A stretch of 64,000 nt of DNA from an uncultured Bacteroidales bacterium (GTDB taxonomy: Bacteria > Bacteroidota > Bacteroidia > Bacteroidales > FEN-979): contig CAIMWF010000046.1 in assembly GCA_903845055.1 (NCBI GenBank), forward strand, positions 11,712 through 75,711, written 5' to 3'. The number at the start of each line of letters is the position of its first letter. The first letter of the stretch is position 1. Made by a program: the position numbers and the translations under genes. Positions 26,294 through 55,689 of this stretch are shown here, piece by piece. The notes under the pieces were generated by a model. It saw only the letters and a list, made by a program, of their open reading frames with translations. It was not told where the DNA came from and ran no database searches.

Positions 26294-27502
26294 CTAATGT
26301 CCCGTAAGCACATAGGGGGCCCAGATGGTCGGCAGGGCGGTTTCGGGACGACTGATCATGTAAAGTTTCACCTCCCGCAGTGCCTCTGAATAGGTCTTAC
26401 CAGAAAGCCACCTGCGGTAAAATGAGATCATAAACTTTCCGGTCAGGTCGTCATTCACACTCCACAGGGTCGAAAGTATATTCCTTGCACCGGCCGTAAA
26501 AAACACGCATGGCAGGCTACTTTCAGGGTCGTCCGGCTTCAGCAGACCCGTCCCTGAAGAACAGGCATTCAAAACGACAAGGTCCGCCTCCAGGTGCAAT
26601 GCCGGGATCTCCTCAGCCGAAAGGAACCCGTTATCTGCCTTATCTTTCCTGCCCGGGAGATCATATCCCCAAAAAAGGAATCCCTTTTCTCCGGGGTTTT
26701 CCTTGTCGTGCAGGAAATGGGTTGCAAGATGAACGATCTTTCCCCGGCAGGCCATTGATTTGAAGTATCCTTTTTCAGAATTCTGACCGCTGACCGTCCT
26801 GCATGCCAATCCCTTTTGTTTGAAGAGCGACCCGATGGCGGCAACTTCCACCTGCGATCCAGGAAGTGCACTCACTCCCCGGTAATTGGAGAATCCCGGA
26901 GAAAACCCAAGGAAAGCATAACGGGAGTCGCCGGGATCGGCTGTATGTTCATCTTGATGGCCGGGGGTGATGTCGGCCCAGCATACCGATGAACAATGGT
27001 AAACAATCTCATAATCACGAATCAGGTAATGAATGTCGCAGATATTGTAGGGTGGCGATGACTGGTCATTTAAAACAAACGCCTCAAACGGCAATCCTGC
27101 CAGTTTTGAACCGGGAATGATGATCAGCCGACGTTTCCCGTTTAAAAAATCTTTGACCGGATCGATGAGAAAAAGATAAAGTACCTGGCCAAGGATCGAA
27201 AACTCATTCGGGTCAGCCGACCTGAGTTTTTTCTGGAATGATTTCAGCGAAGCCCAGAAAAGGGCATTCAGCGACTGTTGTGCAAGCAGGGTTGAATCGA
27301 CTGCAATGGCATTTACGAGAACGGAGGAGTCGGTCAGGAAATATTCGAGCATGACCTCATCGCTCCGAAGGTTTTGCTGTACAAAGCCCGGTGCATCCGC
27401 CTGATGGGAAGACTGTGCGAAAGCAGGAGCGCATAACAGGCAAAATATCATTCCCGGCAGGACGATTCGCAATCCGGAATCCCACAATTTTTCATTCCCC
27501 AT
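26294..27502 (-). CDS. Exported CHAT-domain (caspase-like) peptidase
   Basis: It has a signal peptide LRIVLPGMIFCLLCAPAFAQ. A CHAT-type His/Cys dyad context is present: GKIVHLATHFLHD and EADLVVLNACSSGTG. No TPR region is visible. Confidence 0.7.
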   Translation of the reverse strand: MGNEKLWDSGLRIVLPGMIFCLLCAPAFAQSSHQADAPGFVQQNLRSDEVMLEYFLTDSSVLVNAIAVDSTLLAQQSLNALFWASLKSFQKKLRSADPNEFSILGQVLYLFLIDPVKDFLNGKRRLIIIPGSKLAGLPFEAFVLNDQSSPPYNICDIHYLIRDYEIVYHCSSVCWADITPGHQDEHTADPGDSRYAFLGFSPGFSNYRGVSALPGSQVEVAAIGSLFKQKGLACRTVSGQNSEKGYFKSMACRGKIVHLATHFLHDKENPGEKGFLFWGYDLPGRKDKADNGFLSAEEIPALHLEADLVVLNACSSGTGLLKPDDPESSLPCVFFTAGARNILSTLWSVNDDLTGKFMISFYRRWLSGKTYSEALREVKLYMISRPETALPTIWAPYVLTGH

Positions 27503-27511
27503 TGCCTGAAT

Positions 27512-28294
27512 TCAATAGATGGTCAATGTCCCCATGGTCAGCCATTCATCTTCCTCCACGATTTTCCAGTAATATAATCCCGGAGGGAAGCCCCTTGTTT
27601 GCAGAAGGTATTCCCTGCCTGAAAGCTGCTTCGATTCAAAATGAGAAATTCCATGGTTGTCCATTAAAACAATTTTAATTACCGGCAGCGTTCCGGATAG
27701 GTTCCAGGCAAATCTGAGCGGCTGCCCGGCTTTTACCGAAACCCGGGGCCGGGGACTGGTCAGTGTCAGCTGAGAGGATCGTGTAGCCGAACCGACCAGG
27801 AGTTCGAGCTCGGTCATTGGCCTGTAATGTTCGGCCAGCAGCCGGCCCTGTTTCCCTGAAAGGGGTATGTTCCGGCTGGTGACCGGGGATTTGTAAACAG
27901 GGGTTCGGTCGACCTTCTCCTCATTCTGAGCAGGGGGCGCAACATGGACAATGTCTTCCCGGGTGCCACCAGCCAGCAGGATCGCGGGTTTGTGCAAAAC
28001 CAGGTAGCAAATAACAGCCGCCCCGGCCAGGAAGATTACCGAAGCGGCAACCAGCCACGGTCTGAATAAGTGCCTTGTTCCCCCATGTTTTCCGGCAACC
28101 ACCTGTATCTTTTCCAGTAATTCCATCATATCCCTGTCGGCAAGGAGTTTGTTAAGTTGTGCATCAAGCCTGACCTCTGCGCGCAACAAGGGATCTTTTA
28201 CCATCTGCGCTGAGAAATACTGCAATTCTTCCTCCCCGAGTTCGCCCTCGTTGAACCGGTCAATCCAATCGTTTGTGATGAAAATATTTTTCAT
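27512..28294 (-). CDS. Anti-sigma-factor-like single-pass membrane protein with a C-terminal beta-sandwich-like ectodomain
   Basis: I set the start at ATG 28294 (MKNIFITNDWIDRFNEGELGEEEL). It has a cytoplasmic helical N-domain, one TM helix (WLVAASVIFLAGAAVICYLVL) and an extracytoplasmic C-terminal domain. Its position directly downstream of, and overlapping, a sigma-70-family gene supports the call. No specific family is recognised. Confidence 0.5.
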   Translation of the reverse strand: MKNIFITNDWIDRFNEGELGEEELQYFSAQMVKDPLLRAEVRLDAQLNKLLADRDMMELLEKIQVVAGKHGGTRHLFRPWLVAASVIFLAGAAVICYLVLHKPAILLAGGTREDIVHVAPPAQNEEKVDRTPVYKSPVTSRNIPLSGKQGRLLAEHYRPMTELELLVGSATRSSQLTLTSPRPRVSVKAGQPLRFAWNLSGTLPVIKIVLMDNHGISHFESKQLSGREYLLQTRGFPPGLYYWKIVEEDEWLTMGTLTIY

Positions 28295-28874
28295 ATTCAA
28301 TGAATAGGTAATAATCCGGATCATTCAGTATCTTTTTCCTTAACAGGTTTTTACAGGAATATTTACGTGTCTTCACATAAACATCATCCTTGTATTTCAT
28401 CAAGCGGGCTATTTCCCTGAAGGGAACTTTCAGGCAGAAAAGTCTGATCAACCTTTGACAATCAACAGGCAACATGGACAGGTTTTTATATAACATCCTG
28501 ATTAATTCAAGGTTATCCTCCCGTAGTTTCTGATCATCGGCCGAATAGTCTACCGATGATTCATTTACCACGTAATCAGCGACGTACAGCAATCTGAACT
28601 TGCGTTCAAGCCGCTGGAGCCAAAGGTTTTTACAAATGGCGACGAAATAGGTCTTAAGGCTGCATTCCAGCCGGAATGACTCCTCGAGGCACCGGCTGTA
28701 TAGTACGATGATGGCATCCTGGAGGAGATCTTCCATGTCCTGCTGCGTCCCCGAATTAAGCCTGACCAGGTGCCTGACGATCGGACCAAACTCTTCATAG
28801 ATCCACATAATGCAGCTGCTCTTCTTTTGCCGCAGGCCCTCAATGATCATTTCATCAGAATAAAACAATGTCAT
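28260..28874 (-). CDS. Sigma-70-family (ECF-like) RNA polymerase sigma factor
   Basis: Region 2-like sequence: DLLQDAIIVLYSR...SLKTYFVAICKNLWLQRLER. Region 4-like sequence: LPVDCQRLIRLFCLKVPFREIARLMKYKDDVYVKTRKYSCKNLL. The protein is 204 aa. Confidence 0.65.
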   Translation of the reverse strand: MTLFYSDEMIIEGLRQKKSSCIMWIYEEFGPIVRHLVRLNSGTQQDMEDLLQDAIIVLYSRCLEESFRLECSLKTYFVAICKNLWLQRLERKFRLLYVADYVVNESSVDYSADDQKLREDNLELIRMLYKNLSMLPVDCQRLIRLFCLKVPFREIARLMKYKDDVYVKTRKYSCKNLLRKKILNDPDYYLFIEYEKYFHHKRLD

Positions 28875-28997
28875 AAGCGGTGATTCTGATGCTTAATCGG
28901 CCATGATGTAAAAGGTGAAGCCATTGTTAATAACTTTTCTTGGGGAACTTGTAATAAGAATGACAAGCGAACACCCGAAAAGGTTGCGGCAGTGGAT

Positions 28998-46231: not shown

Positions 46232-46286
46232 TTTTCACTTTTATCCTATTACCTTTTGCGTTTTTTCCGATTAAGCAATAAAAAAC

Positions 46287-55396: not shown

Positions 55397-55689
55397 AATG
55401 CGGTTTTACTGCTTTATCGGGTTTGGAAGGAAAGGTGAAAGGATTGTTGATAACTTTTGTGCAAAGCCTGTCTGCCAGTGGTGAACATTGTAAGGCAACC
55501 TTATGGTCTTCAGCCATGGAGGTGCACACCAAAAGGCATCTGCGGATAAATAGCTACACATGTTCAGATGGGAATTTTAACCCTGTCCCGAAATTACTGA
55601 AATCCCCTATCCCGGAATGTCGACAAAAACAGTCGCCATCAAATTGGGTAAGGAGGCTTCGGCGGACCAGGAATTGATCAAAAAAACGA

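Follow-up and report, generated by a model that had tools for sequence, protein, structure and literature searches.

An ECF-type sigma factor, a single-pass anti-sigma-like protein and an exported caspase-like protein share an operon in an uncultured Bacteroidales bacterium: a candidate protease-gated signalling unit and its putative regulon

Can an exported caspase-like protease take part in the control of a sigma factor with which it shares an operon? The question is raised by a locus in a stretch of 64,000 nt (hereafter the window) from an uncultured Bacteroidales bacterium (assembly GCA_903845055.1, contig CAIMWF010000046.1, positions 11,712 to 75,711; the genome itself is labelled G000 below). 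Three genes, all on the minus strand, encode an extracytoplasmic function (ECF)-type sigma-70 family factor, a single-pass anti-sigma-like membrane protein and an exported, compact CHAT-domain (caspase-like) protein. A tie between CHAT proteins and ECF sigma factors has appeared in print twice, once in a CRISPR system and once in a fusion protein of Myxococcus. The trio described here is one real operon and probably a signalling unit, and the locus is a reduced, derived form (co-directional, with a TPR-less CHAT protein) of a module that is widespread in Bacteroidota and that roughly half of the sampled Bacteroidales genomes contain. In our view, the CHAT protein probably takes a functional part in the control of this sigma factor. 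No form of the module is smaller than this co-transcribed one without TPR, and none would be easier to rebuild in a laboratory host for testing a caspase-like enzyme as the site-1 protease of an anti-sigma factor. The promoter motif described below provides a concrete read-out, together with a candidate regulon of genes for DNA uptake and recombination that lends itself to testing.

The sigma gene (204 aa; 28260-28874) and the anti-sigma-like gene (260 aa; 27512-28294) overlap by 35 nt (28260-28294), and a spacer of 9 nt separates the latter from the CHAT gene (402 aa; 26294-27502). The start codon of the anti-sigma-like gene, the ATG at 28294, is also the one used by its relatives. The trio is flanked by genes for an S9 peptidase (prolyl-oligopeptidase) and RidA; it is bracketed by a terminator-like hairpin of the upstream peptidase gene (29025-29002, minus strand), which we take as the 5' boundary of the operon, and by the convergent ridA. 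No defence genes are located nearby, and the locus has no CRISPR context. A sequence-only reading of the window had described the three open reading frames (ORFs) together with their overlap and spacing, and all of these are present; indeed, every detail of that description that was open to checking turned out to be correct. Its proposal of co-transcription agrees with the tight spacing in the window, but does not extend to most genomes carrying the wider module, in which the CHAT gene is convergent and not co-transcribed.

Profile searches agree with the earlier assignment of the 204-aa protein to the sigma factors. It matches TIGR02937 (sigma70-ECF) over residues 26-163 with 50.7 bits (cut-off 42.9) and PF04542 (region 2) with 26 bits (cut-off 24), and the specific ECF families of NCBIfam all remain far below their cut-offs. 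When the profile of the sigma group was compared with PDB, SigW, SigH, SigE and RpoE emerged as the best solved relatives (residues 2-188). Two cysteines in the sigma-4 part, C139 (~28460-28458) and C174 (~28355-28353), are invariant in all 16 aligned members of the group across families, and they could conceivably serve in redox sensing or metal binding. The sigma position is occupied by a divergent sigma-like protein of greater length (248-286 aa), missed by the sigma profile, in four loci from other classes (among L043:3180-3926, L062:7421-8281, L063:9418-10239, L064:8007-8759 and L065:10025-10792) and in one Bacteroidales locus of the same set.

The 260-aa membrane protein has the anatomy of a single-pass anti-sigma factor. 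In an AlphaFold2 model built with 17 relatives, a cytoplasmic four-helix domain (residues 8-68) is followed by a transmembrane helix (residues 78-100; nt 28063-27995) that is flanked by positive residues at its N-terminal end, a linker without ordered structure (residues ~101-150; nt 27994-27845) and an immunoglobulin (Ig)-like beta-sandwich ectodomain (residues 151-260; nt 27844-27515; pLDDT near 90 from about residue 150). This model agrees with the helical N-domain and the beta-rich extracytoplasmic domain read from the sequence before, and the sandwich resembles, by Foldseek, Ig/FnIII domains and sorting domains like the C-terminal domain of the type IX secretion system (T9SS). With four predicted helices, one transmembrane helix and a gene that overlaps the sigma gene, the protein is a candidate anti-sigma factor, which would bind the sigma factor. 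The family comprises 718 representatives at E<1e-10, nearly all of 240-280 aa. Its members share a common N-domain and differ outside the membrane, where two ectodomain types were found: a TPR-like one in most aligned Bacteroidales loci (L046, L050-L060, L073, L074) and the Ig-like one in the window's family and in other classes (window, L041-L043, L062-L071). Both types pair with CHAT proteins. A conserved segment, P..E.E.L..G..TRS......SP (residues 159-181; nt 27752-27820, minus strand), precedes the Ig-like domain; at least 90% of the close family keep P159, E162, E164, L166, T171, L178 and P181, all of its members keep G168 and R172, and the pattern E....RS....SP recurs in most aligned homologues from other classes of the phylum.

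The third protein is clearly of the CHAT type (PF12770, E 8e-48, 163.8 bits, cut-off 24). The best Foldseek matches of its AlphaFold2 model (pLDDT 81, pTM 0.82) were Csx29, DdvA and separase (E 1e-14 to 1e-8). The dyad motifs are HLATH (H258-H262; nt 26731-26717) and LNACSSG (C314; nt 26563-26561). C314 aligns with the catalytic C907 of DdvA and with the Cys of the conserved separase motif, and H258, H262 and C314 are invariant in 30 relatives, as are the corresponding positions in 35 of 35 partner CHAT domains of other lineages. As judged from these alignments, the catalytic dyad is intact, as had been claimed, with H258 or H262 as the presumptive catalytic His. The earlier statement that the protein is exported likewise stands by inspection of the sequence: the N-terminus carries a hydrophobic stretch ending in AFA|Q, a putative signal peptide of about residues 1-30 that is conserved in the family. 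Pfam detected no TPR in the 402-aa protein, in line with its description as TPR-less.

How far does the association of the three genes reach? The close relatives of the 402-aa protein form ~86 clusters (40-70% identity, ~400 aa), all from Bacteroidota metagenomes. Three of these clusters, with CHAT identities of 67%, 52% and 43%, keep the sigma / anti-sigma / CHAT trio with equally tight spacing. Since the close relatives also keep the flanks (S9 peptidase, ridA, LptD-like, amidase), the conservation of the trio among them shows, by itself, descent only. More telling is the distribution across the order, in which 160 of 301 genomes contain CHAT matches, 157 contain the sigma group and 126 contain both (odds ratio 13, p 1e-23, with kinship ignored). 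Nearly all CHAT matches in the order lie in open frames of 900-1150 aa, and all eight long partners examined with Pfam consist of TPR repeats followed by CHAT, with signal peptides or lipoboxes. Of the best 150 sigma places, 67 have a CHAT gene from among those listed within 10 kb. These neighbours are convergent in 48 cases, in which the anti-sigma gene and the CHAT gene meet at their 3' ends, divergent in 11 and co-directional in eight; the sigma gene stands upstream of CHAT, as in the window, in four of the eight, three of them from the window's own family. The association was also recovered from the side of the membrane protein. A search of the phylum with the anti-sigma profile alone led to 14 places in other orders and classes, from which stretches of 11-18 kb were fetched; 12 of them hold a CHAT-domain ORF within the fetched stretch, and in ten a CHAT gene of ~1000 aa directly abuts the anti-sigma gene, eight of these ten being in other classes. 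The claim that the three genes are conserved together is thus sustained among relatives down to 43% CHAT identity, but the wider module is mostly convergent, with a long TPR-CHAT protein.

One genus of the window's family carries a co-directional 881-aa TPR-CHAT gene. It is likely that the CHAT gene was inverted first and that the TPR arm was lost afterwards. In three loci (L050:5116-6357, L056:3821-5068, L055:10166-11428), the gene immediately upstream of TPR-CHAT encodes a protein of ~415 aa in which Pfam recognises CarboxypepD_reg, a dockerin-like domain and a T9SS sorting domain; it has no counterpart in the window. A candidate for a fourth conserved gene of the module, cluster 'X', was rejected, as the cluster was held together mostly by T9SS sorting domains.

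What might the sigma factor read? Directly upstream of its own gene, we found a two-box promoter-like motif, GGCTTCACCTTTT-N9-CCGATTAAGCAT (28889-28922, minus strand; 29.3 bits with a position weight matrix, PWM), which ends 14 nt before the ATG and is preceded by a conserved block, AAAAGTTATTAACAA (28924-28938, minus strand). In seven orthologous sigma upstream regions, the footprint consists of this block followed by TTCACCTTTT-N9-CCGATTAAGC and ends 14-18 nt before the ATG (window 28938-28889). The motif is not confined to the window's family: when 20 more sigma genes were taken from other families, nearly all had (G)TAT(T/A)ACCTTTT directly upstream, ~20-35 nt before the start codon, most of them with GGAT(A/T)A 9-10 nt beyond the first box, and in eight of these 20 genomes a second copy lies ~170-210 nt away on the opposite strand. 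Outside the window's family, motif copies stand at 2.45 in sigma-positive versus 1.28 in sigma-negative genomes, with controls at 2.05 and 2.02 (p 1e-4). The simplest reading is that the motif is the sigma factor's own promoter, which would make the gene autoregulated.

The same motif recurs through the genome of the bacterium. The pattern ACCTTTT-N8-12-GATTAA occurs 21 times in the own genome versus none in the reversed control, and each of the two other genera of the family has 17 occurrences; in the rest of the order its frequency is about that of the control. A PWM scan gave 33 sites above 22 bits in the own genome versus none in the reversed genome. The own-genome form is GTATTACCTTTT-N9/10-CCGATTAAG, also written GTATTACCTTTT-N9/10-CCGATTAAGCA, and mostly lies 8-15 nt before start codons (for example at C13:5723, C57:10878, C56:9675 and C19:45483). 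The window contains two further copies. One, CCTATTACCTTTT-N9-CCGATTAAGCAA (46245-46278, plus strand), ends 8 nt before the ATG (46287) of a gene assigned to radC by Pfam, whose orthologue in genome G122 also carries the motif. The other is weaker (55409-55442, minus strand; PWM 21.4 bits) and precedes a gene of 187 aa, the orthologue of which in genome G242 carries it too.

In total, the motif precedes ~30 further genes in the window's family. Targets with a name are comEC, comFC-like, comM, radC, ssb, topA and yraN; besides these, we found a PolB-like exonuclease, a tyrosine recombinase, DUF2851, a transposase-like gene and several small genes of the PD-(D/E)XK and 23S-IVP types. Most targets with a recognisable function thus act on DNA, in uptake (comEC, comFC), in processing (comM, radC, ssb, topA, yraN and the exonuclease) or as mobile-element genes, and the only sigma gene downstream of motif sites is that of the sigma operon itself. 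Target orthologues keep the motif in three genera of the family. The flank of the -35 box differs between genomes (GTATTACC, GTATCACC, AGTTTACC) and is uniform within each, which is what a single DNA-binding protein common to the sites would lead one to expect. These observations suggest that an autoregulated sigma factor may drive a competence-like regulon, and the simplest reading of the distribution would be that the regulon was expanded, in the window's family, to genes for DNA uptake and DNA processing. As a mark of the regulon throughout the order the motif was discarded, since no family but the window's shows a strong enrichment of the exact pattern and comM elsewhere mostly lacks it.

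Membrane-bound anti-sigma factors are classically removed by regulated intramembrane proteolysis, as in the DegS/RseP-RseA-sigmaE and RsiW-sigmaW systems. The present locus shares with them a single-pass anti-sigma protein, a proposed extracytoplasmic first cut and an M50 site-2 protease in the genome; the proposed first protease, however, belongs to the cysteine proteases of clan CD and has its gene next to the sigma/anti-sigma pair, whereas the classical ones are serine proteases encoded elsewhere. Closer in composition is the DdvS/DdvA system of Myxococcus xanthus, which also unites an ECF sigma factor, a single-pass anti-sigma protein and an extracytoplasmic CHAT domain with a His/Cys dyad. 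DdvA carries the anti-sigma domain, a transmembrane helix and periplasmic TPR-CHAT in one protein of 991 aa, and removal of TPR-CHAT exposes it to RseP (PMC11506125); an RseP-dependent second cut is shown for the truncated protein. The window's CHAT model matches the DdvA structure (PDB 8ROT, Foldseek E 1.5e-10), with C314 at the place of C907. Unlike DdvA, which is fused and has a zinc-binding N-domain and TPR, the window's system consists of two proteins from separate genes, has no TPR and no zinc motif, and bears an Ig-like ectodomain; the locus therefore does not belong to the one-polypeptide DdvA type. DdvA-like proteins were reported only in Myxococcota and one Comamonas species, and DdvS controls a CBASS/CRISPR island (PMC11506125).

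The other published case is Craspase of type III-E CRISPR, in which the TPR-CHAT protein Csx29 has been shown by experiment to cleave Csx30, an inhibitor of the ECF-type CASP-sigma (PMC10028731). This is the only system in which the cleavage of an ECF-sigma inhibitor by a CHAT protease has been demonstrated, and in the fold comparison the CHAT model matched chains of Csx29 best. Craspase is nevertheless cytoplasmic, RNA-guided and bound to Cas7-11, with a soluble Csx30, whereas the protease in the window is exported and has no CRISPR context; the latter scored 13 bits against the Csx29 family model NF041237 (cut-off 300) and is thus not assignable to Craspase. The sequence-only reading had singled out a compact, TPR-less CHAT protein coupled to ECF signalling for a closer look. 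The coupling as such is already in print, in the forms of DdvA/DdvS (PMC11506125) and Csx29-Csx30-CASP-sigma (PMC10028731), while the compact TPR-less form is confirmed. In the literature, we found no description of a split, exported sigma/anti-sigma/CHAT module in Bacteroidota, nor any description of the module in work on competence and sigma factors in Bacteroidetes, and the main text of the 2021 ECF reclassification does not mention CHAT. The combination of a split anti-sigma factor with an exported CHAT protein is a third, and far commoner, form of the link between CHAT and ECF sigma factors.

From these comparisons, the following chain of events can be proposed. The anti-sigma protein would use its helical N-domain to keep the sigma factor at the membrane. 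Outside, the exported CHAT protein would meet the outward part of the anti-sigma protein, i.e., the disordered linker and then the Ig-like domain, and make or trigger a first, extracytoplasmic cut. A site-2 protease of the RseP type, for which the genome encodes a candidate M50 protease (PF02163, 182.5 bits; G000:C8:40490-41734), would then cut within the membrane and release the sigma factor, and the freed sigma factor would read the two-box promoter before its own operon and the regulon genes. Sigma factor, anti-sigma factor and protease would rise together, which amounts to a positive feedback loop because the protease is co-transcribed with the sigma factor from a sigma-type promoter. We put the whole chain, from sequestration through the CHAT cut and RseP release to promoter reading, forward as a tentative model that is quite possible and, of the explanations weighed here, the likeliest. 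Its central step, that CHAT cuts the anti-sigma factor, is possible and is offered with at least the same reserve. As CHAT is encoded together with the sigma factor in an operon that appears to be autoregulated, it may be both the site-1 protease and a regulated output.

Several observations weigh against this model. The membrane protein has no sequence match in Pfam, NCBIfam or PDB and none to any anti-sigma family, and the zinc motif H-x3-C-x2-C is absent from it (residues 1-68 contain neither His nor Cys), which places it outside the zinc-binding anti-sigma (ZAS) type. CHAT proteases usually need a defined cleavage site, and yet a site-1 cut should fall in the linker, a stretch that is hypervariable among relatives; the conserved segment of residues 159-181 might serve as a docking or cleavage site and would be a likelier one than the linker, although this is a guess from the alignment. 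If the protease lacks a TPR sensor and shares its mRNA with the substrate, it would have to be controlled in another way. As to the promoter, the motif core TACCTTTT resembles the housekeeping -7 box of Bacteroidota, TAnnTTTG. We nevertheless disfavour an ordinary -7 box, as the final G is not conserved in the motif, the spacing to the second box is fixed and the flanks of the sites change in step within each genome. The regulon has gaps as well: recA in the own genome has no motif upstream, and comM in 23 genomes of other families mostly lacks it, with or without the sigma factor. Finally, no motif was found in the 130 nt upstream of four convergent CHAT genes of the order that were examined; given that most CHAT genes are convergent too, co-regulation of CHAT with the sigma factor is not general.

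The last point bears equally on a rival explanation, in which CHAT is mainly an output: induced by the sigma factor, it would process other envelope or secreted proteins, e.g., surface proteins or parts of the DNA-uptake apparatus, and the anti-sigma factor would be inactivated otherwise. The position of the window's CHAT gene in an operon behind a sigma-type promoter speaks for this explanation, and the hypervariable linker fits it as well. So does the sigma-type motif that precedes the ~415-aa T9SS-substrate gene, and hence the T9SS-substrate/TPR-CHAT operon, in the three loci mentioned above, the gene being divergent from the sigma gene in two of them. Against it, the CHAT gene is convergent with the anti-sigma gene in 48 of the 67 adjacent cases and lacks the motif in the four examined, and yet it remains joined to the anti-sigma gene at the 3' end in several classes, a pattern that suits a physical partner more than an ordinary target. 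On balance we regard CHAT as mainly an output as rather unlikely. A physical partner need not be the cutting enzyme, however. CHAT could instead be a sensor or co-anti-sigma factor that binds the ectodomain, as RseB does with RseA, and gates another site-1 protease or a signal peptidase, with the dyad serving self-processing or ligand cleavage. The conserved adjacency of the anti-sigma and CHAT genes suits such a role, and so do the protein-binding TPR arms of the long partners. DdvA offers a precedent: its TPR-CHAT part sterically blocks RseP, and dyad mutants have no phenotype in resting cells, autoproteolysis being proposed only (PMC11506125), which also counts among the points against proteolytic control by CHAT. 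Against a purely binding role speaks the invariance of the dyad and its surrounding motif in all 35 partners, by which catalysis appears to be under selection, and the CHAT protein of the window has lost the very arm that would bind. We consider the sensor role unlikely, a shade more so than that of an output.

The most sceptical explanation is that the three genes are neighbours by descent only, without a joint function. It would account for the synteny of the whole neighbourhood in close relatives, from the S9 peptidase and ridA to the LptD-like and amidase genes, but not for a pairing that survives changes of flank and orientation and is also seen in other classes of the phylum, or for the strong correlation of gene presence across genomes; we hold it to be very improbable. 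To return to proteolytic gating of the sigma factor by CHAT, if this is true the control of sigma signalling by CHAT would have a third form, one that is split and periplasmic.

It is attractive to speculate further that a sigma factor gated by an exported caspase-like protease could act as the master switch of a competence-like programme of DNA uptake and processing in the window's family, as a self-amplifying on/off circuit, although we regard this extension as doubtful. To our knowledge, the control of DNA-uptake and recombination genes is largely unknown in Bacteroidota, and the sigma factor would, if the proposal is true, be the first regulator proposed for a competence-like programme in this phylum. 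The competence sigma factors of Firmicutes (ComX/sigmaX and SigH; PMC3486894, PMC3364868) provide a parallel, with comEC, comF, ssb, radC and similar genes of DNA processing placed behind the promoter of an alternative sigma factor. They belong, however, to other sigma subfamilies and another phylum and have neither a membrane anti-sigma factor nor CHAT, so the likeness is confined to the target set.

A few minor observations concern the DNA around the motif sites. The block upstream of the sigma promoter, of the form AAAAGTTAT(T/C)AACAA with the inverted repeat GTTA-N-TAAC, stands before the motif at both 28924-28938 and 55445-55459 (minus strand); the second instance, AAAAGTTATCAACAA, is near-identical to the first and precedes the motif copy at 55442-55409. 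Similar GTTAATAA/GTTGAAAA blocks occur before other motif sites, and the block could be an upstream promoter element or an operator. The 187-aa gene behind the copy at 55409-55442 has an N-terminus that, read by eye, looks like that of an IS200/REP-associated tyrosine transposase; Pfam gave no match in its first 45 residues. The 120 nt before recA (C40, reverse complement 104315-104435) contain several GC-rich palindromes of the type GACGCACCGCAGTGCGTC / GCGCACCACAGTGCGTC / GACGCATCGCATGCGTC. Lastly, six near-identical elements of ~70 nt (…CCCTGCCAAAATAAAATGCTGACAGGTTGATTACCTTTTCCTGTTTTTCCGATTAA…; C10:6634, C24:5087, C24:12355, C43:7593, C47:12356, C154:50584) contain the motif, and two of them are followed by PD-(D/E)XK genes of the GxxExxY type; the element looks like a small repeated cassette.

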